DNA of 64,000 nucleotides from Bacteroidota bacterium (GTDB taxonomy: Bacteria; Bacteroidota; Bacteroidia; Chitinophagales; Chitinophagaceae), in assembly GCA_037139075.1 (NCBI GenBank), contig JBAXHC010000001.1, positions 2,795-66,794 on the forward strand, read 5' to 3'. Positions 8,634 through 23,208 of the stretch are shown here, in pieces. Every line of letters begins with the position of its first letter. Positions within the stretch are counted from its first letter, which is position 1. A model generated the notes under the pieces. That model ran no database searches. It was not told the origin of the DNA and saw only the letters and a list, made by a program, of their open reading frames with translations. Made by a program: the position numbers and the translations under genes.

Positions 8634-10682
8634 ATGCAGTCAAAACATACGAATCGATTGGTTCATGAAACCAGCCCTTACTTATTACAACATGCTCATA
8701 ATCCGGTAGACTGGTTTCCATGGGGCGAAGAAGCATTGCTAAAGGCAAAGCTTGAAGACAAGCCGATTTTGGTAAGTATTGGTTATGCTGCTTGTCATTG
8801 GTGTCATGTGATGGAAAGAGAAAGTTTTGAAGACGAAACCACGGCTTCCATGATGAACCAATATTTTATCAATATCAAAATTGATAGAGAGGAGCGGCCC
8901 GATTTAGATCATATTTATATGGATGCTGTTCAATCCATCACTGGCGCTGGTGGCTGGCCCTTGAATGTATTTTTAACTCCAGAAGCGAAACCTTTTTATG
9001 GGGGCACTTATTTCCCTCCAGAAAGAGCGTATAACCGGGCTAGTTGGAAAGAAACTTTAGAGGGAATTCATAAAGCGTATCAGGAGAAAAAGCACGAGAT
9101 CTTATCACAGGCGGAGAACCTAACAGAACATTTACAATCTGCCAACTCATTTGGAATTCAAATAAAATCCAGCGACCATCAAAACAGTTCTGTTACTGTG
9201 GAACAGCTTGATGTAATTACAAAAAACCTACTGCAATCTGGAGACAAAGTCTGGGGTGGTTTTGGGAAAGCTCCAAAATTTCCTCAAACATTTTCGATTC
9301 AATTTTTATTAAGGCAATATCATTTTACAAAAAACGAAGATGCTTTAAATCAGGCTTTGTTAAGCATTGATAAAATGATCGATGGTGGAATTCATGATCA
9401 ATTGGGTGGAGGATTCTCGAGGTATAGTACTGATAATGAATGGTTGGCACCTCATTTTGAGAAGATGTTATATGATAATGCCTTGTTGATTTCTGTAATA
9501 GCGGAAGCTTATCAAATTACTGGTAATCCTGTTTATGCTTCAACAATTCAAAATTGCATTGTATTTATAGAAAGAGAACTAAGAAGTGAAGAGGGTGGAT
9601 GCTTTAGTGCATTGGATGCAGATAGTGAGGGGGTGGAAGGCAAATTCTATACATGGTCATTCGAAGAAATCAGAGAACTTCTTAAAGAAGATGCAATCAT
9701 TTTTTGTAAGTATTATCAGGTACAAGAAGGAGGAAATTGGGAACACACAAATATTTTATGGGTTAAAGAAAGTCCGGAAAAATTTGCACAGCTAAATGAA
9801 CTTATTCCTGCTGACTTTATAAAATTATTGGACCACTCAAAAAAGATCTTATTTGATGCAAGGGCTAAAAGAATAAGGCCTGCTTTAGATGATAAAATAT
9901 TACTGGGGTGGAATGCTCTGATGAGCACTGCATATTCAAAAGCCTATGCGGCGTTAGGGGTAAATGCTTATAAAGAAACTGCGAAAAAGCATATGACTTT
10001 TTTGGAGCAAAGTTTCCGACAGCCTGATGGCAATTGGTATCATACATATAAAAATGGGGTAGCAAAGCAACCAGCGTTTCTGGACGATTACGCATATCTC
10101 ATACAAGCACTTATTCATTTACAAGAAATAACTGGTGACGCATCTTATTTAATAAAATCTAGAGAGTTAACTGAGATGTTAATTGCACATTTTACAGAGG
10201 CAGAAACTGGCTTTTTTTACTTTACCCACGACCAGCAAAATGACGTGATTTTAAGAAAAAAAGAAGTCTATGATGGTGCTACTCCAAGTGGAAATGGTAT
10301 TATGGCATCAAATTTGCTTTACTTGTCAAAGGTTTTTGATAGGAAAGATTGGGCAGATCTGGCTAAAAAGCTGAGTTATACCTTGCAAGAGAGCACCCTT
10401 AAATACCCGGGTTCATTTGGAATATGGGCTTCTCTATTGCAATTATATTGTTTTGAGGTATTGGAAATTGCCATAACTGGAAGGGAATTCGAACAAAATC
10501 TCCCCTCAGTCATGAAAAAATACATACCCAATAAAATAATTCAGTCCGGAGAAACTAATTTGAGCAATTTCTCGTTATTAGCAAACAGAGAAACAGCTAT
10601 TCCGGTAGCTTTTTATATCTGTAAGAATTTTACCTGTTTGAGACCTTTTTATAATATTGTTGACTTTTTAGCAAATGTGTAA
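8634..10682 (+). CDS. YyaL/SSP411-family thioredoxin-domain protein with C-terminal alpha/alpha-barrel
   Basis: [65 protein letters not shown]. Confidence 0.9.
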
Positions 10683-10835
10683 CAGATTTTGTTCTAATTT
10701 GCTGCAAATGACAACGGTATCTGATGCCGAAAATGTTTTTTTTCGCACAAAAAAGTAACCCCATAGGTAGATTTCTACACGATTAAATTTATTGGTAACA
10801 AAATCTCAAATAAGGTTTAGAGCCAATGAAAAACT

Positions 10836-10843
10836 TATATTTG
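10836..10843 (+). promoter_or_regulatory. -7 promoter element (TATATTTG) for gldKLMN
   Basis: Exact TAnnTTTG match, 29 nt before ATG 10873. Confidence 0.6.
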
Positions 10844-10872
10844 TCACTGTCATAAAAAATCATTCTGATCAA

Positions 10873-12159
10873 ATGAAAGGGTACTTAACTATAATACTAT
10901 TAGCGGCATTTTCACTAAGCATGAGTTCCTGCTTTTTCAAAAAAGGAGGCAACACAAAATCATCTATGCCCGATGATGGACAGTTACATGGTTTAGCGCC
11001 AGCTGCTAAACAGAGCATGAATCGTCCGCTGCACATGGTGTACATTCCACCGGGAACATTTCATATGGGACCTAGTGATGAGGATATCAGTTATAACATG
11101 ACTACTCGTAACAGACAAGTTTCTATTCCTGGTTTCTGGATGGATGCAACTGAGATTACTAATAATGAGTATCGTCAGTTTGTTAGCTGGACAAGAGATT
11201 CTCTAGCTTTTAAAATCCTCTTCGGACAGGGGATTAATAAAGATGATGATACCATGGCTGTTGATCCTAAAAAAGTGGCTACCATCAAATACGATAGAAA
11301 TACCATCGAAAAATTAAACGAATTGAATCTTGCGCCAGATAATAGATTATATGGTAAAGCTGAGATCGATCCTGAAAAATTGGTATATAGAATCGAGTAT
11401 TTCGATTTACAAGCTGCTGCAAAAAGAGAAAATACAGGGCATCCTCGCAAAGAATTCATAGTAAAAAGAGATCAACAAGTGTATCCAGATACATTGGTTT
11501 GGATGAGAGACTTCTCTTATTCTTATAATGAACCAATGACAAAAAGATATTTTTCTCACCCTTCATTTGGAAATTATCCAGTAGTTGGGGTAACCTGGAA
11601 GCAGGCTGTTGCCTTCTGTCATTGGCGCTCTCATTATTTGAATAGCTTTTTAGAAAGAAAAAAATTAGCTGTTGAAAGTGATTTCAGATTGCCAAGTGAA
11701 GCAGAATGGGAATACGCCGCAAGAGGTGCTCGTACAAATTCCATGTATCCTTGGGGTAACTACTATTTAAGAAACAAAAAAGGTTGTTTATTAGCCAACT
11801 TTAAGCCAGGTCGTGGTAATTACGCAGAAGATGGCGGATTCTATACCGTACGTGCAGATGCTTATTGGCCTAACGATTATGGTTTATACAATATGGCTGG
11901 AAACGTGGCTGAGTGGACCAATTCTTATTTCTATGAAGGAGCTTACAACTTTGTTAGCGACATGAGTCCTGATGTTCGTATAGATGCGAAAGACTCTGAT
12001 CCCCCAAGAATGAAACGTAAAGTAATTCGTGGAGGCAGCTGGAAAGATGTAGGATATTTCTTGCAAGTAAGTACCAGAAACTTTGAGTATCAGGATACTG
12101 CAAAATCTTATATAGGATTCCGTTGTGTAATCGACTTAGCTCCTAAGACTAAAAAATAA
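10873..12159 (+). CDS. gldK: T9SS/gliding ring lipoprotein GldK/PorK (FGE-sulfatase fold)
   Basis: Lipobox LSMSSC after ATG 10873; FWMDATEITNNEYRQFV, YPDTLVW, RLPSEAEWEYAARG, GLYNMAGNVAEW; first gene of a KLMN cluster. Confidence 0.92.
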   Translation: MKGYLTIILLAAFSLSMSSCFFKKGGNTKSSMPDDGQLHGLAPAAKQSMNRPLHMVYIPPGTFHMGPSDEDISYNMTTRNRQVSIPGFWMDATEITNNEYRQFVSWTRDSLAFKILFGQGINKDDDTMAVDPKKVATIKYDRNTIEKLNELNLAPDNRLYGKAEIDPEKLVYRIEYFDLQAAAKRENTGHPRKEFIVKRDQQVYPDTLVWMRDFSYSYNEPMTKRYFSHPSFGNYPVVGVTWKQAVAFCHWRSHYLNSFLERKKLAVESDFRLPSEAEWEYAARGARTNSMYPWGNYYLRNKKGCLLANFKPGRGNYAEDGGFYTVRADAYWPNDYGLYNMAGNVAEWTNSYFYEGAYNFVSDMSPDVRIDAKDSDPPRMKRKVIRGGSWKDVGYFLQVSTRNFEYQDTAKSYIGFRCVIDLAPKTKK

Positions 12160-12254
12160 TTACTCTAATAAATTCGCTGAAAATTGAAAGGTATAATCAT
12201 AAATTATACTGGCTTTAAAAAAAACGTTTTAACTAATATTAAAAAATAACCGTT

Positions 12255-13004
12255 ATGGCCCAAGGTGTTTCTCCAACTGTAAATAGAGCAGTTAACGTAA
12301 TTGTATGTGTTGGTGCTGCTGTTGTAATTTTTGGTGCAATGGGTAAGATTCTGCACTTATCTTGGGCAGATGTTGCATTAAAAGTTGGTTTGAGTACAGA
12401 AGCTCTTATCTTTTTAGTGTATGCTATTTTACCTCCTCCTGATATGGGCCCTTCTTATGCTCCAGCTCCTGTTGATAAAGGAAATCCTGCATTAAAGCAA
12501 TTGGATAAAATGTTACAAGACGCAGAAATTACTCCAGCTAACTTAAGTAAGTTGAGTAGTAGTTTTCAAAAATTAGGAACCACTGTAGAACATATGGGTG
12601 AGATTGGTGATGTGGTTAAATCTACTACTGATTTCTCATCAAAAGCTAAAGAAGCAGCTGTAGCATTTGTAGCATTTAAAGATGCAACTCAACATGCTAG
12701 TCATTCATTAGCTGGCTTTAGTGGTGCTGCGGAATCTGCAAAGAATTTTCATGAACAAATGCAAGGTTTGAATAAGAACCTTACATCTTTAAATACAATT
12801 TACGAATTGGAATTACAGGAGAGTAATAATCACCTGAAAGCACTGAATCAATTCTATGGTAAACTGTCGCAAGCTTCTGCTGCAATGACAGGCACTGCAG
12901 ATGATGCACTCAAAGCAAAAGCAGAGATTGCAGCACTTGCAAATAACCTAGGCAAATTAAATCAGGTTTATGGCAGCATGTTAACTGCTATGCAGGGAAA
13001 ATAA
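12255..13004 (+). CDS. gldL: T9SS/gliding motor stator subunit GldL/PorL
   Basis: Two N-terminal TM helices (GAAVVIFGAMGKILH...GLSTEALIF), cytoplasmic coiled coil, C-terminal VYGSMLTAM. Confidence 0.92.
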   Translation: MAQGVSPTVNRAVNVIVCVGAAVVIFGAMGKILHLSWADVALKVGLSTEALIFLVYAILPPPDMGPSYAPAPVDKGNPALKQLDKMLQDAEITPANLSKLSSSFQKLGTTVEHMGEIGDVVKSTTDFSSKAKEAAVAFVAFKDATQHASHSLAGFSGAAESAKNFHEQMQGLNKNLTSLNTIYELELQESNNHLKALNQFYGKLSQASAAMTGTADDALKAKAEIAALANNLGKLNQVYGSMLTAMQGK

Positions 13005-13056
13005 TAAGCGCAAGCTGAACCAATTCAAAAATTTGTATTTCTAAATTTAAGTTAGC

Positions 13057-14607
13057 ATGTCATTACCTAAGGAGCCGCGGCAGAAGATGATCAACATGAT
13101 GTACCTAGTGCTTACAGCATTACTGGCACTGAATGTTTCTAACGAAATCTTGAACGCATTCAAAACTGTGAATAACAGTTTGAACACCGCTAGTTCAATG
13201 GTGGAGAGAAAGAATGTTGATATCTTCAAGTCATTTCAGAAAAAATTAGAAGACCCTAAGACAAAAGAAAAAGCTGAGATTTGGATGCCAAAAGCACAAA
13301 AAGCTAAGGCAATATCCGATGAGCTCTATGCTTATATTGAGGCATTAAAGCTTGAATTAAAGCAAGAATCAGGGTTGAAATTAGTAGAAGGGGTAGAAGA
13401 TTATAAAGAAGACGATTTGGAAGCAGCTACTCGATTGTTAGTAGAAAATGCACCAACTGGAAAAGGCAAAGGGAAAATTTTATTCGACAAACTGAAAAAG
13501 TATAAAGAAGATCTATTAGCTATTGATCCAGATGTGGCAAAAGAAGTCGGACCTACTTTGCCTTTAGATTTAACGCCTCCTCCTACAAAGAATAAAGCAG
13601 TTAAAGATGATTTGGCTTACCTCTATTTTCATATGACACCTACTGTTGCTGCAATAACTATTTTGAGTAAGTTTCAAAACGATATTAAAAATAGTGAAGC
13701 ACAAGTTGTAGAATATTGTCATAAAGAAATTGGAGAAGTTGAATTGATTTATGATGAGTTTCAGGCATTCGCTGGAACAAACTCTCAGTATTTGATGCCT
13801 GGTGAAGAATTAATTATCACTACAGGTATTGGTGCCTTTAGTAAAGCCGCAAAACCAAATATTACCATTGATGGCGCGCCTGTTAGTGTTAAAGAAGATG
13901 GTTCTGCTGAATATAAAACTACTGTAAGCGGCTCTGGCCCGGCAGTTAAAAGAGTAAGCATTTCATTTGTGAAACCAGATGGCACTATTGCTAAAGTTGA
14001 TAAAGAAGTAAGATATACGGTTGGTGTTCCTTCAGGTTTAGTTGTATCTACCGATAAAACACGCGTTTTCTATCAAGGCCTTGATAATCCATTAAGCGTT
14101 ACAGGTGGTGGTGGTGATGAAAAAGTAAATGTATCTGTTGATGGTAATGGAGTGAGTTCTAGAAAAGACGGACCTGGACAATATATTGTTAGTTGTAATA
14201 ATTTAGGTTCTGCTATCGTTACCGCTTCTGATGGCAAAACCTCTCAAAAAATTACAATACCAATCAAAAGAGTTCCGGATCCATTGGCAACAGTGGGTGG
14301 AAAAGCTGGTGGACCAATTGCAGCCAATGTTTTTCGCGTTCAAAAAGGGGTTGCTGCTGAATTACGTGATTTCGTTTTCGAAGGCGTTAGATATGAGGTT
14401 ACATCTTTTACATTAATCTGCACAGGTAAAGGCTTTGATGATGGATTGGGTGTTGCAGAAGTAACCGGTTATTATTTTAATGCTGAAGCACAAACTTTAC
14501 TTAAAAGATGTCAACCTGGTTCAACTGTTGTAATTGATGAAATTAAAGTGAAAGGACCTGGTGGAAATAGACAATTAGATCAAAATATTTCGTTTACACT
14601 TCAATAA
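13057..14607 (+). CDS. gldM: T9SS/gliding motor rotor subunit GldM/PorM
   Basis: PKEPRQKMINMMYLVLTALLALNVSNEIL signature; KRVPDP. Confidence 0.95.
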   Translation: MSLPKEPRQKMINMMYLVLTALLALNVSNEILNAFKTVNNSLNTASSMVERKNVDIFKSFQKKLEDPKTKEKAEIWMPKAQKAKAISDELYAYIEALKLELKQESGLKLVEGVEDYKEDDLEAATRLLVENAPTGKGKGKILFDKLKKYKEDLLAIDPDVAKEVGPTLPLDLTPPPTKNKAVKDDLAYLYFHMTPTVAAITILSKFQNDIKNSEAQVVEYCHKEIGEVELIYDEFQAFAGTNSQYLMPGEELIITTGIGAFSKAAKPNITIDGAPVSVKEDGSAEYKTTVSGSGPAVKRVSISFVKPDGTIAKVDKEVRYTVGVPSGLVVSTDKTRVFYQGLDNPLSVTGGGGDEKVNVSVDGNGVSSRKDGPGQYIVSCNNLGSAIVTASDGKTSQKITIPIKRVPDPLATVGGKAGGPIAANVFRVQKGVAAELRDFVFEGVRYEVTSFTLICTGKGFDDGLGVAEVTGYYFNAEAQTLLKRCQPGSTVVIDEIKVKGPGGNRQLDQNISFTLQ

Positions 14608-14609
14608 AT

Positions 14610-15716
14610 GTGGGTATGAAAAAATTAATAGTATTTGGTTTGGTGTTTTTTGTTGGGATGAATGCTATTGTGCATGCTCAATCAAAATATAAGACAGGTG
14701 GTGCAAAAACAACCGCAGCACCTACAGCTGCGCCGCCAACCACCGCACCAGCAACAAATACGAATGCTAAGCCTAGAACTAAGTCAGCGTATTTAAATAA
14801 TAATGCAGCTAATACTGTGTCTCCAGATACTACAAGACCTGCAACAGGTGCTGTGACAAGTACGCCTCCTCCAAATTCTACCGTTAATGTTAGATTCGAT
14901 ACCACTATCGTTGGCGGATTTGATACGAAACAGGAAGTTTCTTTGAGAAGCAACTATGCAGTAGAGCGTCAATTGACAAAAGACAGAAAACCCCTGGATT
15001 ATGATTATATCCGTGAGGATGATCAGGTTTGGAGTCAGTTTGTTTGGGAAGAAATTGATGGACATGAAAAAATGAACCAAGGGTTTATGTATCCGGGTAA
15101 AGACGATAATGGAGATCAACGCTTTTTTTCTATATTATTGAATGCAATTAAGTATGATAGTGTTGTAGCATTCTCTCCTGATAACGATTTGTTTAAAACA
15201 CCTCTAACTGCTGATCAGGTTGCTAATCTTACTGCCGGTGCTTTAGATACGGTTGAAGTAGCAGATCCAGTGAGTGGTGTTATAGAAAGAGTAATTACCA
15301 GAAAACCAAGATTCGCTCCTGATTCTGTTTATACTTTCCGCGTTAAAGAACAATGGATTTTTGATAAAGAATCAAGTAAAATGACTTGTAGAATAATTGG
15401 AATTGCTCCAATTGCAAAACAAGTTGTGGCAGGTAAATCTCAACCAAGAACTTTGTTTTGGATTTATTATCCAGACTTAAGAAAATCATTGGTGAAATAC
15501 GAGGTATACAATCCCAAAAACTTTGCAGGACGTATGTCTTGGGAGGAACTTTTTGAAAGCCGCTATTTTTCGGGATATGTTATTAAATCAACCATTAATA
15601 ATCCTGGAGATAAATACTTAAATGGTTTAATAAAAGATCCTTTGATGCGTTTGTTAGAAGGACAAAATATCAAAGAGAAGATATTCAATTACGAGCAGGA
15701 TCTTTGGGCATACTAG
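14610..15716 (+). CDS. gldN: T9SS/gliding ring protein GldN/PorN
   Basis: Signal peptide; YIREDD..WS..VWEEID, FRVKEQWIFDKESS, RIIGIAP, FWIYYP, LFESRYF, FNYEQDLW. Start is GTG 14610 or ATG 14616. Confidence 0.92.
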   Translation: MGMKKLIVFGLVFFVGMNAIVHAQSKYKTGGAKTTAAPTAAPPTTAPATNTNAKPRTKSAYLNNNAANTVSPDTTRPATGAVTSTPPPNSTVNVRFDTTIVGGFDTKQEVSLRSNYAVERQLTKDRKPLDYDYIREDDQVWSQFVWEEIDGHEKMNQGFMYPGKDDNGDQRFFSILLNAIKYDSVVAFSPDNDLFKTPLTADQVANLTAGALDTVEVADPVSGVIERVITRKPRFAPDSVYTFRVKEQWIFDKESSKMTCRIIGIAPIAKQVVAGKSQPRTLFWIYYPDLRKSLVKYEVYNPKNFAGRMSWEELFESRYFSGYVIKSTINNPGDKYLNGLIKDPLMRLLEGQNIKEKIFNYEQDLWAY

Positions 15717-15738
15717 TTTAAAGAGAAAATAATTTTTA

Positions 15739-15768
15739 AAAAAGAGGCATTTTTGCCTCTTTTTTTTT
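15739..15768 (+). terminator. Intrinsic terminator of gldKLMN
   Basis: AAAGAGGCA-tttt-TGCCTCTTT followed by a long T run. Confidence 0.8.
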
Positions 15769-15842
15769 GAAAATCGTCAAAAAAATGCTGTTTTTAGAGT
15801 AAGTTCTCTTTTTTTAATGCAATAGATTACTTAACTTAGTTA

Positions 15843-15904
15843 TGGTTTTTCATAGGATATTGGATTTTAAAACGGGGCTGGATGTTCATCCTGGCCCCTT
15901 TTTT
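15843..15904 (+). ncRNA. Candidate small RNA (~60 nt) between gldN and uvrC
   Basis: TAACTTAG -7-like element (15832-15839) downstream of the gldN terminator, then a second GC-rich hairpin with a plus-strand T6 tract. Confidence 0.3.
15874..15904. terminator. GC-rich hairpin, likely bidirectional terminator at the uvrC 3' end
   Basis: GGGGCTGGATG-tt-CATCCTGGCCCC flanked by ttttaaaa and tttttt. Confidence 0.7.
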
Positions 15905-17723
15905 ATGTTTTCTCCTCTTCAGATTGGTTGAAATGATTAAAAATCAATCCCGCTTTCTGAGGTCCAATTATGCTACTTAAATTATCTAAGGATTGCTCTC
16001 TAACATTTTTTACAGACTTAAACTGTTTCAATAATTGTTCTGCTGTTTGCTTACCAATTCCAGTAATCGTTTCTAATTCATTCTTAAAACTTCCTTTCGA
16101 GCGTTGATTTCTATGAAATGTTATTCCAAAGCGATGCACTTCATCTCTAATCCTTCTTACAAGTTTTAAACTATCGCTATCCCATGGCATTTTGATAGAG
16201 CTACTATCACCAGGAAAAAATAATTCTTCTTCGTTTTTTGCTAAACCCACTACGGTTGTTCTACCATGCAAGCCCAACTTATGAATGCTCTCCATAGCAG
16301 CGCTTAATTGCCCCTTGCCTCCATCAATGATTATCAATTGAGGAATTGGGAGAGATTCGTCCAGTACCCGCTTATATCGCCTGTAAACGACTTCTGTCAT
16401 GGTTGCGAAATCATTAATGCCTACAACCGTTTTTACATTATAGTGTCGGTAGTCGTTCTTACTTGGCATACCATCTTTGAAGCATACCATTGCTGAAACC
16501 GGAAAGCTTCCCTGAAAATTACTATTATCAAAACACTCGATATGTGTAGGTACTTCTGAAAGCTGTAAATAATCCTGTAACTCGTACAAAACTTTTTTCT
16601 TTTCCTGATCTGTTTTTCCTTCTAAATGCAATAATTGTTTTCTGTGTAATGCCTCTTTAAAATAATAAACGTTTTTTTCTGAGAGTTCCAGTAGCTTCTT
16701 TTTATCCCCCGCTTTTGGAATAGTGATCGTTATTGATGGGTCTGGATAGTCAATTGCAATAGGAACAATAATCTCGTTTGATAAGCTATTAAATGTGCTA
16801 CGCAAATTAGCTACTGCAAAACTCAGAACCTCTTCATCTGTTTCCTCGAGTTTTGTTTCTAAAGGAACCGTATGTGTTTGAACGATTGTACCATTCTGAA
16901 CCATCAGATAGTTTACGTATCCCCATTGTGCTTCTCTTACAATCGAGAAGACATCCAGATTGGAAAGATGCTTACTAACTATTATTGATTTTGCCTCATA
17001 GTTTTCTAAATGCTCAATTTTTTTACGCATCAGCTCTGCTTTTTCAAATGCCATATCTGAAGCCGATTGTTGCATTTCTCTTTTGAAATGAGCAATTACA
17101 GGATTTAGATTTCCTTTTAGCATGTTGCGCATTTGTTGTAACCCATCATCATAATCAGATGCATTCTGTAAAGCAACACAAGGTGCTTTGCAGTTGCCTA
17201 AATGATATTCAAGACAAACCTTGAATTTTCCTTTTTGAATATTTGATTCTGTTAAAGGAAGTTTACAGGTTCTAAGGGGTATAAATTGTTTTATAAAAGA
17301 AATAAGTTCACGCACATTACCAGCAGAAGTAAATGGTCCGAGATATTCTGAACCATCGTTTATTTTATTACGGGTCAGAAATACCCTTGGATAAGGTTCT
17401 TTCTTAATTACAATAAAAGGATAAGTTTTGTCATCCTTTAAATTAATATTGTACTTAGGCTGATATTCTTTGATCAAAGAATTTTCTAATAAAAATGCAT
17501 CCTGCTCTGAATCAACGATGGTGAATTGAATTTTTTTGATTCGTATTACAAGTTCGTGTGTTTTATAAGTGGTGAATGTCTTTGAAAAATAAGAGCTAAC
17601 GCGCTTGCGAAGATCTTTCGCTTTTCCTACATATAACAACACGTCATTATTGTCATAGTATTTATAAATACCAGGATTTGTGGGAATAGTGTGTGCTATT
17701 TTTTGAAACTCAATTGCGGTCAT
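15903..17723 (-). CDS. uvrC: Excinuclease ABC subunit C
   Basis: GIY-YIG (PGIYKY...YVGKAKDLRKRVSSYF), HIECFDNS, IIIDGGKGQL, IRDEVHRFGITFHR, C-terminal HhH. Confidence 0.97.
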   Translation of the reverse strand: MTAIEFQKIAHTIPTNPGIYKYYDNNDVLLYVGKAKDLRKRVSSYFSKTFTTYKTHELVIRIKKIQFTIVDSEQDAFLLENSLIKEYQPKYNINLKDDKTYPFIVIKKEPYPRVFLTRNKINDGSEYLGPFTSAGNVRELISFIKQFIPLRTCKLPLTESNIQKGKFKVCLEYHLGNCKAPCVALQNASDYDDGLQQMRNMLKGNLNPVIAHFKREMQQSASDMAFEKAELMRKKIEHLENYEAKSIIVSKHLSNLDVFSIVREAQWGYVNYLMVQNGTIVQTHTVPLETKLEETDEEVLSFAVANLRSTFNSLSNEIIVPIAIDYPDPSITITIPKAGDKKKLLELSEKNVYYFKEALHRKQLLHLEGKTDQEKKKVLYELQDYLQLSEVPTHIECFDNSNFQGSFPVSAMVCFKDGMPSKNDYRHYNVKTVVGINDFATMTEVVYRRYKRVLDESLPIPQLIIIDGGKGQLSAAMESIHKLGLHGRTTVVGLAKNEEELFFPGDSSSIKMPWDSDSLKLVRRIRDEVHRFGITFHRNQRSKGSFKNELETITGIGKQTAEQLLKQFKSVKNVREQSLDNLSSIIGPQKAGLIFNHFNQSEEEKT

Positions 17724-17732
17724 CCTGCGCTA

Positions 17733-18317
17733 TCATTTTTTTCGATCATTCCAATTGACATAATTAAATTCATTGGACACATAACCAGAAGGGGTCTTGG
17801 AAAATCGATTTATCTGAAAACTTTTACCAGCTTTCCAATTCCATTGTTCCACAATACTAGTGTCTTTATTCATTGTTTCAATTCTGATAAAAACACGTTT
17901 TACAATATTGGTATTTTCATCCAATAAAATATCAATGTTTTGAATGGGTTCATCTACCGACTTTGGTCGATAATTTAAAGTGTAACTATTAGTACTTAAA
18001 TCATGAAAAACAGATTCTGTGAATTTATCATGCATTTCTGGAGTACTAATATCTTTATTTAAAAAAGCAGAAGCCATGGATTTAAATAATTCTTTATCAA
18101 TTCCAATAGAATCTCTTTTCCCGTTCCGTTCTTTGATTAGGTAAATAGGATATGCCCTTAAATCAACATCTACAATTTGTTCATTAAAGAAACTATGAAG
18201 GGCGTAAAATTTTGTAGTATCTGAATTCGGCTTTTCGTTTTTAATGGCTTTTTTATTCTTGCAACCAGCCATTATAAACAGAATCACAATTAAGTAGAAG
18301 CAATTTTTCATAACCAA
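17733..18317 (-). CDS. Uncharacterised lipoprotein
   Basis: Lipoprotein signal (LIVILFIMAGC) followed by KNKK; no recognised domain. Confidence 0.65.
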   Translation of the reverse strand: MVMKNCFYLIVILFIMAGCKNKKAIKNEKPNSDTTKFYALHSFFNEQIVDVDLRAYPIYLIKERNGKRDSIGIDKELFKSMASAFLNKDISTPEMHDKFTESVFHDLSTNSYTLNYRPKSVDEPIQNIDILLDENTNIVKRVFIRIETMNKDTSIVEQWNWKAGKSFQINRFSKTPSGYVSNEFNYVNWNDRKK

Positions 18318-18389
18318 AAATATTCAAAAGCAGGTAAGTGCCATCAAATTTTTCAATTGATGGTACTGCTTTAACAAAGTGATGATAAA

Positions 18390-19877
18390 TTATTTAATCT
18401 GTTTGATAAAGCCAAGTCGAATACCATAGTCCATCAGGTATTCTGTAATCGGATATTTATTGGAATACGTAGGCAGGTGTTGGAATCTAGCCTGTGGCCC
18501 TAAGAACCATTGATAAACACCTGTTTGGTAGGTAAGGTTTATTCCCAAAGAACTATTGATATTCCATTTGCGCATAAGGCTATTGCCGTCAGCGTAGTGC
18601 TTATAATCAGTTGATAATAAATACAAGGATTTATTCAAGGTAAAAGTGGGCTGAATAGATGCTTCTGCTGTAACTCCTATGTGCTTCCCTTTTATGATAT
18701 CATATTGGAATCCTATAGGAATAGATACCTGGTACATTTTATTGTCTAATTCTGCATTACGGTATCCATTATTATTATTATAAAGCGATAAAACACTTAC
18801 GTTTTCTATGCCATGATTATTCACCAATGAAATGGTAGTTACATCTGCCACTGATTGAAAAGTTTCAATATAATATTGTCGGATATTGAATTGAATGCCA
18901 GTTTTGAATTTAATACGGTTTGACATATTATACAAAACAGCAAATCCTAATTCCAAACCAACAGCTGGTTTATGACGAACAATTTCGTTAATGTTAGTAG
19001 TATAGTTCAAACCAACAGGGGCTGTTGCCGGAGCGGTTCCCAGAATTTCTTTGGCTTTAAAGTCTGATAAACTCCGATAGCTTGTTGAAGGTGTGATAAA
19101 GAAGCCAAATCCAAATTTCGAATTCTTTGTACTTACTGTTGTGATTGGTTTATACGCGAATTCTTTAAGGTATTCGTCTGTTGAAATAGCTTCTATTTTA
19201 TTGTTCTCTGCAACTTGCACTAAAGCATTGTTTTGAGTGGCATTATTTTCTGCTGAAAGTTTTTTGATTCCTGTTTTTGATTCAAAAGCTGAATTTGATT
19301 CGGGCACATCTATAAGAAGATTTGCATTCTTATTTGATCCTTCTTCTTTAACTATTGTTGTTGCAGCACTATTATTTGAGTTTGATTCTTCTAAAAAAGA
19401 AGGTTTTGTAGGTAATTGAATTTCTTTCAGTATTTGTTCAGGAACAGCAGTTGCTGCAACTTCTTTTATAAACCGGATAGGTATAATTGGTGCTTCTGAA
19501 ACAACCCTATTGGCTTCATCCTTTAATTGTTGTTGTTCAATTTGAGCGATAGTAGATGCAGTTACTTGTTCAGCAGAAATGGCATTGAAATCAGAACTAA
19601 CTGAAGGCTGATCTGTTGGAATAATTTTTTTATCGTAGCCGTTTTTAAGAACAACCAGTTTGCCTGCTTTTTGTGCCGGATGATTATTAATAAGCGTAGC
19701 TACAGTAAGTGCTGAAATGATGAATATGGAAATAAAAGTAAGTGCTGGCCAGGTTTGAGGACCGTGAACCTCATTCTGTATATTTCTCCAGATCTGGTCA
19801 GAAGGATACATTCGATGGTCTTTAACCTCATCCTGAAGAAATTCTTCCAATTCGTCTTGGTACATATTGTTATCCAT
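18390..19877 (-). CDS. Putative dual-membrane-spanning anti-sigma factor (N-terminal anti-sigma segment, TM helix, long polar linker, C-terminal OM beta-barrel)
   Basis: Residues 1-42 acidic with a PSDQIWRNI motif; TM ~43-63; ~190-aa low-complexity linker; amphipathic beta-strand domain from ~aa 255; 17 bp downstream of an ECF sigma gene. Confidence 0.7.
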   Translation of the reverse strand: MDNNMYQDELEEFLQDEVKDHRMYPSDQIWRNIQNEVHGPQTWPALTFISIFIISALTVATLINNHPAQKAGKLVVLKNGYDKKIIPTDQPSVSSDFNAISAEQVTASTIAQIEQQQLKDEANRVVSEAPIIPIRFIKEVAATAVPEQILKEIQLPTKPSFLEESNSNNSAATTIVKEEGSNKNANLLIDVPESNSAFESKTGIKKLSAENNATQNNALVQVAENNKIEAISTDEYLKEFAYKPITTVSTKNSKFGFGFFITPSTSYRSLSDFKAKEILGTAPATAPVGLNYTTNINEIVRHKPAVGLELGFAVLYNMSNRIKFKTGIQFNIRQYYIETFQSVADVTTISLVNNHGIENVSVLSLYNNNNGYRNAELDNKMYQVSIPIGFQYDIIKGKHIGVTAEASIQPTFTLNKSLYLLSTDYKHYADGNSLMRKWNINSSLGINLTYQTGVYQWFLGPQARFQHLPTYSNKYPITEYLMDYGIRLGFIKQIK

Positions 19878-19894
19878 ATACAGGGCAGCAGCAA

Positions 19895-20473
19895 CTATTT
19901 TTTCAACGTGGCCAATAAGTTGAATTCTTCTTTTGGCTTTTCGATGATTTGTTTTCTTATTAGGATATTCTCTAGCATTGTTTTGGCTCTGGTGTATTGG
20001 CTTCTGCTGGTACTCTCTTCGATGTCCAACATTGCGCCAATCTCTTTATGGCTGTAACCTTCCAAAGCGTACAAATTCAATACCGTTCGGTAACCTAATG
20101 GCAATAATCTAATACATTCAACAATTTGGCGCGCCTGCATGATAGAGGGAACTGTTTCTTCTTTTACTTGTAAATAACTTGCATAATCCAAATCAACACT
20201 TTCGTTGAATTTCTTATACTTCTTTAAAAAATTGATACAAGTATGAACAACGATTCTTCTAATCCATCCCTCAAAAGCACCTTTATTTTGAAAAGTATGT
20301 ATCTGGGTGAATACTTTGATAAATCCTTCTTGCAGCATATCCTCACCGTCTTCGCGACTTTGAGCAAAGCGATAACAAACACTGAGCATTTTAGGACTAT
20401 ATCGGTTATACAACTCCCGTTGCGCAGCAACGTCATTGTGTAAACAACCCGAGATAATTGCCTGTTCGGTCAT
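19895..20473 (-). CDS. ECF (sigma-70 group 4) RNA polymerase sigma factor
   Basis: Region 2 (AQRELYNRY...EDMLQEGFIKVF...FEGWIRRI) and region 4 (LPLGYRTVLNLYALEGYSHKEIGAML...STSRSQYTRAK). Confidence 0.95.
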   Translation of the reverse strand: MTEQAIISGCLHNDVAAQRELYNRYSPKMLSVCYRFAQSREDGEDMLQEGFIKVFTQIHTFQNKGAFEGWIRRIVVHTCINFLKKYKKFNESVDLDYASYLQVKEETVPSIMQARQIVECIRLLPLGYRTVLNLYALEGYSHKEIGAMLDIEESTSRSQYTRAKTMLENILIRKQIIEKPKEEFNLLATLKK

Positions 20474-20684
20474 GAGGGGAATTTAAGTTCCCCTAAATAT
20501 AGACATAAAATGCTTTTAATTGCTGCATCCTAAAGCAGATTTATTGCTTAAAACCTCAAAAAAACTTCATTTTTTGTCAAAAAATTGTAATAATTGGAGG
20601 GCCAAGCCAGGATTATGGTTTATAGCGAACTGATATACATTCGTTAAAATAGTAAAATGGAACATAGAATCTTTAATGCTACAA

Positions 20685-20692
20685 TATATTTG
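20685..20692 (+). promoter_or_regulatory. -7 promoter element (TATATTTG) for the TonB-dependent receptor, implying a ~70-nt leader
   Basis: Exact TAnnTTTG match, 74 nt upstream of ATG 20767. Confidence 0.5.
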
Positions 20693-20766
20693 CAGTCCTA
20701 GATTCGCTTTTGAATCAGCATTTACTACATGCTTTATACTTTAATCAGTAGTCCTAAAATGTAACA

Positions 20767-23208
20767 ATGCGCAATTTTATATATCAGCTATTTATTGGAT
20801 TTACGGTATTAATTGGCATTTCAAATGCACAACAAAACCAACATACTGTAAAAGGCAATACGCCTTCTGGAAATAATAAATCATTTTTAACCGGGAAAAT
20901 AATCGATCAAAAAACGGGTGATCCCCTTGTTGGAGCAAGCATTTTTTTTCATGAATCTAAATCTGGAACCATTTCTGATAGCAAAGGATTCTTTGTTAGT
21001 CAGGGTATCCCAGCTGGAAAATATCTGGTAGAAATATCATTTCAAGGATTTGCAACCATCATTGAAAATATTGATATCAATGGGAAAGTAGAGAAGAATT
21101 TTAGCATGACAGAAACTGTTGTTGAACATGAAGAAGTTACAGTTACCGGTGTGGCATCTGCAACAAAAACAAAACTATCATCTCAGCCAATCTCAATTCT
21201 TAAAAGATCCGACTTATTGCAATCATCTTCTACTAATATTATTGATGCAATCAGCAAATTGGTTCCTGGTGTGGCAAGTTTAGGAACCGGACCGGCAATT
21301 AGTAAACCAGTGATTCGTGGACTAGGATATAACCGAGTAGTAACAGTTCATGATGGTGTTAGGCAAGAGGGGCAACAATGGGGAGACGAACATGGTATCG
21401 AAGTAGATGAATACAGCATTCAAAAAGTAGAACTTCTAAAAGGCCCAGCTTCACTTTTTTATGGAAGCGATGCCATGGCTGGAGTTGTGCATTTGATTAC
21501 CAATGTGCCTGTTCAAAGAGGAACAATAAGTGGTAATATAATGGGCACGTTCAATGGAAACAATGGCTTGTTTGGAACAAATGCAAATCTTGCGGGGCAT
21601 TTGAAAAACGGTTTCAATTTCAACGCTTATGGCACTTATAAAAATGCGGGTGATTATCAGAATGCATATGATGGAAAAGTTTTCAATAGCAGATTCAATG
21701 AAAGGAATTTTGGAGGCTATATTGGCGTCAATAAATCCTGGGGATACAGCCATATCATAATCAGCAATTTCAATCAACATATTGGAGTAATAGAAGGTGC
21801 AAGAGATGCAAATACAGGGCAGTTTCTTGTTTACCCGGAAACGATTCTTTCACATATAGCTACAAGTGACGAGTTGAATAGTAGAATCCTTTATACACCT
21901 TATCAACAAGTCACTCATTTTAAAATTGCGAGTGATAATAATTTTGTTGTACCTGGAGGAAGAATGACGGTAAACTTAGGATATCAGGATAATAAAAGAA
22001 GGGAATTTGGTGACCAGGCAAATTCACTTATACCAGATCTTTTCTTTGATTTAAAAACCATTAATTATAATTTCCAATATCATATCACTGAAAACAATGG
22101 CTGGCTTAATTCAATTGGAATTACTGGTATGTACCAACAGAATCAAAATCTTGCAAAAGAAGTACTCATTCCTGAATATAATTTGTTTGATGTAGGTGCT
22201 TTCTTTTATACCAAAAAAACCTTTGATAATTTAACAGTGAGCGGTGGAATAAGAGCAGATCACAGAAGTTTGCACGGTTTTAAATACATGGAGAATGCTG
22301 TAACACGATTTGATGATTTTAGTCGCTCTTTCTCAAACCTAAGTGGAAGTGTTGGTATCAGTTATTCAGTTAATGAGTCTTTAACTTGGAAAATAAATGT
22401 GGCAAGAAGTTATAGGGCCCCTAGTGTTTCTGAATTAGCAAGTAATGGAGCTCATGAAGGAACCAATCGTTTTGAATACGGAGAACAAAACTTAAAGTCC
22501 GAAACTGCTTTTCAGATTGATGCAGGTTTCGAATATAATGAAGACCATATTAGTTTTGCTGTTAGTACATTCTATAATAACATACAGAACTATATTTTTT
22601 ACAGCAAACTAGAATCAGTACTTGGCGGTGATTCATTGGTGAATCAAGGTGGAAACGATTTAACTGCATTCAAATTTCGCCAGGCAATAGCATCGTTATA
22701 CGGATTTGAGGCAAAACTTGATATCCATCCACATCCACTTGACTGGTTACACTTTGAAAATAATTTTTCATTAGTTGCTGCCCATTTTAATCAGGAGTTT
22801 GAAGGGACTAATAAAATTCCTTTTGTGCCTTCTCCAAGATTATTGAGTGTGTTAAGGGCTAATTTTAATAAGAAAGATAAATATTTAAGGAATAGTTATT
22901 TGAAACTTGAATTGGATAATGTTGCTGCACAAAACAGGGTGTTTTCTGCTTATAATACAGAAACTGCCACACCTGGATATACCTTACTAAACTTCGGAAC
23001 TGGAACAGATTTTGTACATGATGGAAAAATTGTTTTCAGTATTTATATTGGCATCAATAATCTTACTGATGTGGCATATCAGAGCCATTTGAGTCGCTTA
23101 AAATACACTGATGTTAATCCTGTTACCGGCAGGATGGGTGTATTTAATATGGGTCGTAACTTTAGTGTAAAACTCAATATGCCATTGAGTTTTAAAACAA
23201 AAGCCTAA
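20767..23208 (+). CDS. TonB-dependent receptor with N-terminal carboxypeptidase-regulatory-like domain
   Basis: Signal peptide; TGKIIDQKTGDPLVGA; plug motif PVIRGLGYNRV...RQEGQQWGDEHG...VELLKGPASLFYGSDAMAGV; C-terminal MGRNF. Confidence 0.9.
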   Translation: MRNFIYQLFIGFTVLIGISNAQQNQHTVKGNTPSGNNKSFLTGKIIDQKTGDPLVGASIFFHESKSGTISDSKGFFVSQGIPAGKYLVEISFQGFATIIENIDINGKVEKNFSMTETVVEHEEVTVTGVASATKTKLSSQPISILKRSDLLQSSSTNIIDAISKLVPGVASLGTGPAISKPVIRGLGYNRVVTVHDGVRQEGQQWGDEHGIEVDEYSIQKVELLKGPASLFYGSDAMAGVVHLITNVPVQRGTISGNIMGTFNGNNGLFGTNANLAGHLKNGFNFNAYGTYKNAGDYQNAYDGKVFNSRFNERNFGGYIGVNKSWGYSHIIISNFNQHIGVIEGARDANTGQFLVYPETILSHIATSDELNSRILYTPYQQVTHFKIASDNNFVVPGGRMTVNLGYQDNKRREFGDQANSLIPDLFFDLKTINYNFQYHITENNGWLNSIGITGMYQQNQNLAKEVLIPEYNLFDVGAFFYTKKTFDNLTVSGGIRADHRSLHGFKYMENAVTRFDDFSRSFSNLSGSVGISYSVNESLTWKINVARSYRAPSVSELASNGAHEGTNRFEYGEQNLKSETAFQIDAGFEYNEDHISFAVSTFYNNIQNYIFYSKLESVLGGDSLVNQGGNDLTAFKFRQAIASLYGFEAKLDIHPHPLDWLHFENNFSLVAAHFNQEFEGTNKIPFVPSPRLLSVLRANFNKKDKYLRNSYLKLELDNVAAQNRVFSAYNTETATPGYTLLNFGTGTDFVHDGKIVFSIYIGINNLTDVAYQSHLSRLKYTDVNPVTGRMGVFNMGRNFSVKLNMPLSFKTKA

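Follow-up and report, generated by a model that had tools for sequence, protein, structure and literature searches.

We identified a pair of genes from the family Chitinophagaceae that very probably encodes a Dma-type (dual membrane-spanning) module, that is, an extracytoplasmic function (ECF) sigma factor and its anti-sigma factor. The pair lies in a 64,000-nt stretch of DNA (the window) from contig JBAXHC010000001.1 (positions 2,795 to 66,794) of the Bacteroidota bacterium assembly GCA_037139075.1, where the minus strand carries four successive open reading frames (ORFs) of 192, 495, 194 and 606 aa, separated by gaps of 17, 72 and 9 nt. The first encodes the stress-type sigma factor (19895–20473, minus strand) and the second, beginning 17 nt after it, the putative anti-sigma factor (18390–19877, minus strand), exactly at the positions given in an earlier note on this DNA that had proposed the Dma reading. 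All defining features of the Dma family that can be tested in sequence are present: a neighbouring upstream sigma gene of the Das (ECF21) clade, a sigma-binding-type N-terminal segment of ~40 residues, a single α-helical anchor without a cleavable signal peptide, a long disordered linker between anchor and barrel and, in the structural model, a C-terminal barrel of the small OMP_b-brl_2 type, for which the family definition gives eight strands.

Reference pairs for comparison were located in Bacteroides thetaiotaomicron. A dma2 (BT_1558) cloning primer from the supplement of PMC13088901 matched 27 Bacteroides genomes, one of them a B. thetaiotaomicron metagenome-assembled genome (MAG), and its site in that MAG is the start of a 350-aa ORF with transmembrane helix, linker and barrel behind an ECF sigma gene, which identifies the pair as Dma2/Das2. 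Searching the same genome with PF13568 returned one further barrel in a long frame behind a sigma gene. The gene divergent from that second sigma encodes a NigD_N + NigD_C lipoprotein (NigD2), a flank that reproduces the published BT_4719–4721 layout, and we therefore took this pair as Das1/Dma1.

The window sigma factor contains the Pfam domains Sigma70_r2 (E = 4e-17) and Sigma70_r4_2 (E = 6.5e-13), matches the NCBIfam ECF model TIGR02937 (E = 4.9e-26) and is 36% identical to both Das1 (E = 2e-36) and Das2. As a query against the B. thetaiotaomicron genome it retrieved Das1 (2.9e-30) and Das2 (6.9e-27), separated by 13 orders of magnitude from the next ECF sigma factor (1.6e-13); the reverse search picked four sigma factors of the window's genome, including that of the window, again with a large gap. 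By these searches the window sigma and Das1/Das2 are reciprocal best matches. In a maximum-likelihood tree, all 33 sigma factors encoded ahead of a gene with transmembrane helix, linker and barrel form one clade (support 100/98), outside which fall eight other ECF sigma factors of the window's genome included for comparison. Within it, the clade of the window sigma (19 sequences from different genera) stands apart from a Bacteroidales Das clade (98/93). Das1 and Das2 have been assigned to ECF21 (Pardue et al. 2024, PMC10927553), and their shared clade makes the window sigma ECF21-like by proxy. Across genera the sigma factor is unusually conserved (72–91% identity), with the anti-sigma factor drifting (25–61%).

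Homology of the anti-sigma factor to Dma proteins was assessed with hhalign, using one profile built from the window family and another built from 18 Dma1/Dma2 proteins of Bacteroidales. The barrels aligned end to end (probability 95.5%, E = 1.5e-8), with a hairpin insertion of ~35 residues at 338–372 in the window family relative to Dma1. The N-termini, compared without the transmembrane helix (residues 1–44 of the Dma1 family), aligned with a probability of 90.3% (E = 1.5e-6) and a score of 27.4, whereas none of 20 column-shuffled controls scored above 13.5. W30 of the window protein pairs with W27 of Dma1, which is near-invariant there. In Bacteroides the corresponding segment, Dma1(1–40), pulls down Das1 (PMC10927553).

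The cytoplasmic N-terminal segment (residues 1–43; 19749–19877, minus strand) is predicted to form short helices at residues 9–19 and 27–38. The first 44 residues carry a net charge of −7, with PSDQIWRNI at 25–33, and an alignment of 75 homologues yielded the motif D.FE.FL......HRMYPSD.VW.NI...LHG...WP, in which W30 is invariant. Residues 1–45 and 256–495 are conserved in this alignment, and residues 66–255 are the least conserved and most gapped. A single transmembrane helix follows: the only segment exceeding 1.6 on the Kyte-Doolittle scale spans residues 45–63 (maximum 2.39), and AlphaFold2, run with the 75-homologue alignment (mean predicted local distance difference test score (pLDDT) 76.5), places the helix at 44–64 (19686–19748, minus strand). 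Because a conserved acidic domain of 43 residues precedes the hydrophobic stretch, it does not constitute a classical signal peptide. Family members average 2.9 Lys/Arg in the 15 residues before the helix and 1.6 after it, an excess that fits an N-in topology under the positive-inside rule. The earlier note had described this acidic N-terminus, the one helix and the lack of a cleavable-signal pattern, and each of these points was borne out.

Between anchor and barrel lies a periplasmic linker (residues 65–254; 19116–19685, minus strand) that is predicted to be disordered except for one helix at 102–125, with pLDDT below 50 at residues 69–99 and 130–232. Its length of ~190 aa is as the earlier note had it; the S/N/E/Q/K/T richness also claimed there is only modest (share of 0.51 over residues 66–255 against 0.42 for the whole protein), and alanine is the commonest residue. 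The linker helix (19503–19574, minus strand) has a pLDDT of about 80–86 and is conserved slightly above its surroundings; on the model, it may be a docking or cleavage site.

The linker bears on the alternative that retains the most weight, although we consider it unlikely: a processed, two-piece system in which the transmembrane helix is a signal anchor and the chain is cut constitutively after export, leaving a free OmpA-like outer-membrane protein and a short anchored anti-sigma stub, with no bridging chain in the working state. An unconserved, disordered linker would be an easy protease target, and stationary-phase B. thetaiotaomicron contains mainly C-terminal fragments (~20 and ~17 kDa), which are also the only forms to reach outer-membrane vesicles (OMVs) (PMC10927553). 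Against this, full-length, doubly tagged Dma1 was detected in B. thetaiotaomicron membranes (PMC10927553), and N-terminus, transmembrane helix and barrel are kept fused in one ORF in 88 of the 120 genera sampled and throughout ~1000 clusters (50% identity), which argues that the covalent link matters.

The C-terminal domain of the Dma-type protein (residues 255–495; 18393–19115, minus strand) is confidently modelled as an OmpA-like β-barrel. Pfam OMP_b-brl_2 matches residues 288–465 with 36.9 bits (gathering score 27), and AlphaFold2 builds residues 255–493 as a barrel with pLDDT above 90. The earlier note had proposed a β-strand domain here and AlphaFold modelling as a check on it; the modelling did not return the failure to form a membrane barrel that the note had named as grounds for giving up the idea. 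Each of the 67 significant matches in the Protein Data Bank (PDB) found with Foldseek is either an integral outer-membrane barrel or a designed transmembrane barrel, as are the top VIA matches, and stand-alone PorT-type barrels superpose on the model with template-modelling (TM) scores of 0.72–0.75.

Several observations weigh against assigning the pair to the Dma type. A tblastn search of four Bacteroides genomes with the 495-aa protein gave nothing significant, and BLASTP against B. thetaiotaomicron Dma1 gave a marginal match restricted to the barrel (E = 0.007); with pairwise similarity this marginal, we turned to the profile comparisons above, and the kinship rests on them. The window copy, unlike the family as a whole, is poor in positive charges just before the transmembrane helix. 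DSSP divides the modelled barrel into 11–13 strand segments, and the barrel of this family carries the ~35-residue hairpin insertion noted above. The protein ends in ...LGFIKQIK, lacking the aromatic final residue that BAM substrates typically have; B. thetaiotaomicron Dma1 and Dma2 both end in ...TY. In a scan of the genome for the strict form of the candidate promoter described below (GCAGC-N16-TGTC), we found 10 matches against about 6.6 expected from base composition.

The missing aromatic β-signal, together with the inability of AlphaFold2 to distinguish a lipid-embedded from a soluble barrel, would also suit a conventional anti-sigma factor that crosses the membrane once and ends in a soluble, β-rich periplasmic sensor domain rather than a membrane-inserted barrel. 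We regard this as very improbable, given the OMP_b-brl_2 score above gathering, the uniformly membrane-barrel Foldseek matches with their PorT-type superpositions, and homology to the barrel of Dma1, itself found in OMVs (PMC10927553).

The window module is a paralogue of Dma1 restricted to one family, as judged from sequence, and not its orthologue. One-to-one orthology to Dma1/Das1 was ruled out by the separate sigma clade, the null tblastn and marginal BLASTP results and a nearer paralogue in the same genome. That genome contains at least three complete triplets of sigma factor, protein with transmembrane helix, linker and barrel, and lipoprotein: the one in the window and those on contigs C21 (locus L006, 338–3400) and C20 (locus L004, 704–3166). 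A fourth Das-clade sigma gene, on contig C163 (3859–4410), is cut by the contig end. The module on C21 is nearer to Bacteroides Das1/Dma1 than the window module is, and its sigma factor joins the Bacteroidales Das clade (support 90/75). A cytochrome c domain occurs on one lipoprotein of the two further triplets.

The 495-aa family is large. An exhaustive search recovered 995 clusters at 50% identity (E ≤ 1e-3), 544 of them at E ≤ 1e-30, nearly all with proteins of 440–520 aa. The window subfamily occurred in 88 of 120 Chitinophagaceae genera, each represented by one genome of at least 90% completeness, and was not found at E ≤ 1e-20 in 78 genomes of the same class that represent more than 50 families besides its own. 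Its nearest named homologues are from Sediminibacterium MAGs. Among 24 genomes of the window's own genus, the module is present in 11, mostly larger ones, and is mostly missing from genomes of 1.3–2.4 Mb. This pattern suggests loss during genome streamlining, and several of those small genomes are incomplete.

Upstream of the sigma gene we found a candidate ECF-type promoter on the minus strand (20500–20526), comprising a −35 element GCAGC (20522–20526), a 16-nt spacer and a −10 element TGTCTA (20500–20505), and starting 53 nt upstream of the sigma ATG. Among 21 orthologous loci, each taken from a different genus, 16 have GCAGC-N16-TGTC at the same position, and the region upstream of B. thetaiotaomicron das2 contains GCAGC-N16-CGTCTA. 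We infer that GCAGC-N16-TGTCTA is the sigma factor's own promoter. The window holds no second exact match, and allowing up to one mismatch placed no other match in the window before a relevant gene. Since the strict motif is not commoner than chance genome-wide (10 matches against ~6.6), no regulon can be called; regulon prediction was dropped, with only the self-promoter convincing.

The leader between promoter and gene holds a stem-loop (GGGGAA/TTCCCC; 20475–20494, minus strand) that ends 1 nt before the ATG and has a minimum free energy of −10.0 kcal/mol (z = −4.3). Single-sequence folds placed a hairpin, with differing stem sequences, at the same site in 12–13 of 16 orthologous leaders, and RNAalifold found no consensus hairpin in a MAFFT alignment of the leaders. 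It may act as a stabiliser of the mRNA 5′ end or as a translation gate.

Four small freshwater metatranscriptomes (two samples) yielded contigs that match the window with at least 99% identity. The sigma gene is spanned in full and the anti-sigma gene in several parts, and one contig (19744–19941, from one run) crosses the junction between the two. None extends past 20487, which fits a transcript start just after the −10 element. These contigs show presence in RNA libraries and suggest that both genes are expressed, probably on a common transcript. The same metatranscriptomes held no contigs on the two downstream genes, which is neutral on their transcription.

Those two genes encode a lipoprotein of 194 aa (17733–18317, minus strand; lipobox MAGC, Cys19) and UvrC (606 aa; 15903–17723, minus strand; TIGR00194, E = 4.1e-152). 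We compared the locus across 20 genera with 7-kb flanks. Sigma and anti-sigma genes were neighbours in all 20, uvrC lay downstream on the same strand in 18, and a homologous lipoprotein of ~190–205 aa stood between anti-sigma gene and uvrC in 15–16, marking it as a conserved partner. The gap from lipoprotein gene to uvrC is at most 29 nt in 12 of 15 genera, and a scan of 15500–21000 found no terminator-like site on the minus strand. By sequence, uvrC is the probable last gene of the transcription unit; its position 9 nt after the lipoprotein gene and the conserved same-strand linkage mean that nucleotide excision repair may be co-transcribed with the envelope-sensing sigma unit.

The lipoprotein was considered as a NigD protein, and this identity was ruled out: it has no NigD match in Pfam or NCBIfam (NigD was not sought elsewhere in the genome), and its model bears a weak likeness to the LolA superfamily instead. 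With a likeness this weak, a role like that of RseB could be considered as a lead. Combining these partners, we tentatively raise the possibility, doubtful as yet, that in Chitinophagaceae a Dma-type sensor heads a unit of sigma factor, anti-sigma factor, LolA-like lipoprotein and uvrC. In that case a signal from the outer membrane or the cell surface would activate nucleotide excision repair, either in place of a DNA-damage signal or alongside it, and the lipoprotein could be an RseB-like partner acting on the tether, for example at helix 102–125.

Beyond uvrC lie gldK, gldL, gldM and gldN (10792–15716, plus strand), identified by NCBIfam equivalogs. The earlier note was right that they are close by; they are, however, on the opposite strand, converging on uvrC, which separates them from the module. 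The 682-aa ORF immediately 5′ of gldK (8634–10682, plus strand) had no NCBIfam match at E ≤ 1e-10. ECF sigma factors regulate type IX secretion system genes in Porphyromonas, and gldKLMN fell within the 7-kb flanks, convergent beyond uvrC, in 10–11 of the 20 genera. Even so, there is scarcely any likelihood that the module controls gliding motility or type IX secretion and owes its place next to gldKLMN to such a role, as the earlier note had suggested for secretion: the promoter motif, with its one exact site in the window, is nowhere near gld, neither a shared transcription unit nor a sigma-specific promoter was found at gld/por genes, the same-strand partners are the lipoprotein gene and uvrC, about half of the genera lack gld in the flanks while sigma gene, anti-sigma gene and uvrC stay linked, and core genes within a single family would be expected to stay linked through vertical descent. 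What connects the module with gldKLMN is conserved synteny and nothing more.

Sigma binding, residence in both membranes and proteolytic release are carried over to the Dma-type protein of the window from the experiments in Bacteroides. On that analogy, the N-terminus would hold the sigma factor at the inner membrane in the resting state, with the barrel sitting in the outer membrane. Disturbance of the surface or the outer membrane would lead to proteolysis of tether and anchor, and the freed sigma factor would transcribe from its own promoter, producing positive feedback. Read-through from this promoter would extend over the genes for the anti-sigma factor and the LolA-like lipoprotein and probably over uvrC, with a further regulon in addition.

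The window pair resembles Dma1/Das1 (BT_4721/BT_4720) and Reo/EcfO of B. fragilis (PMC10927553) in having an ECF sigma gene followed by a gene for a protein with an N-terminus of ~40 aa, transmembrane helix, disordered linker and OMP_b-brl_2 barrel. With Dma1/Das1 it further shares profile-level homology of N-terminus and barrel, the sigma clade and a lipoprotein gene beside the pair. It differs in the length of the anti-sigma factor (495 aa, against 419 aa in Dma1), in the ~35-aa hairpin insertion and non-aromatic terminus of its barrel, in a LolA-like rather than NigD partner lipoprotein, in the uvrC that follows in the unit and in the restriction of its subfamily to one taxonomic family; the function in B. 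thetaiotaomicron is vesiculation, and there full-length Dma1 sits in membranes (PMC10927553). Dma2/Das2 (BT_1558/BT_1559; PMC13088901) has the same architecture and a das2 upstream motif nearly identical to that of the window, whereas Dma2 is shorter (350 aa), occurs only in the genus Bacteroides and is linked to DUF4943/DUF4858 genes and to polysaccharide utilization locus (PUL) expression.

The implication in the earlier note that a Dma system is new to free-living lineages was overstated, since Dma1-like proteins had been reported for 27 of 29 Bacteroidota, a set that ranges from commensals of the gut to inhabitants of soil (PMC10927553). The design was already described in gut Bacteroides in 2024, and the window pair is a correct but ordinary new member. 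What is modestly new is a family-restricted paralogous branch of about 1000 clusters at 50% identity, found in 88 of the 120 genera sampled, with its self-promoter and with a LolA-like lipoprotein and uvrC as its fixed partners. The locus also shows that three or four Dma-type modules can occur together in a single free-living genome. The branch offers tractable comparative material and leaves the Dma concept itself unchanged.

Two better-known systems provide further parallels. RpoE-RseA-RseB of Escherichia coli likewise comprises an ECF sigma factor, a single-pass anti-sigma factor and a co-transcribed envelope protein with a LolA-like fold, and release there proceeds by regulated proteolysis after an outer-membrane signal. 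In FecA-FecR-FecI, too, an outer-membrane barrel signals to an inner-membrane anti-sigma factor and frees an ECF sigma factor, but Fec needs three proteins and TonB, and the window anti-sigma factor is not FecR-like. The window does encode a TonB-dependent receptor (20767–23208, plus strand) divergent from the sigma gene, an arrangement seen in 13 of the 20 genera; the N-terminus of this receptor is of the CarboxypepD_reg type, and an STN signalling domain is absent. The receptor gene is followed by a DUF2721 gene.

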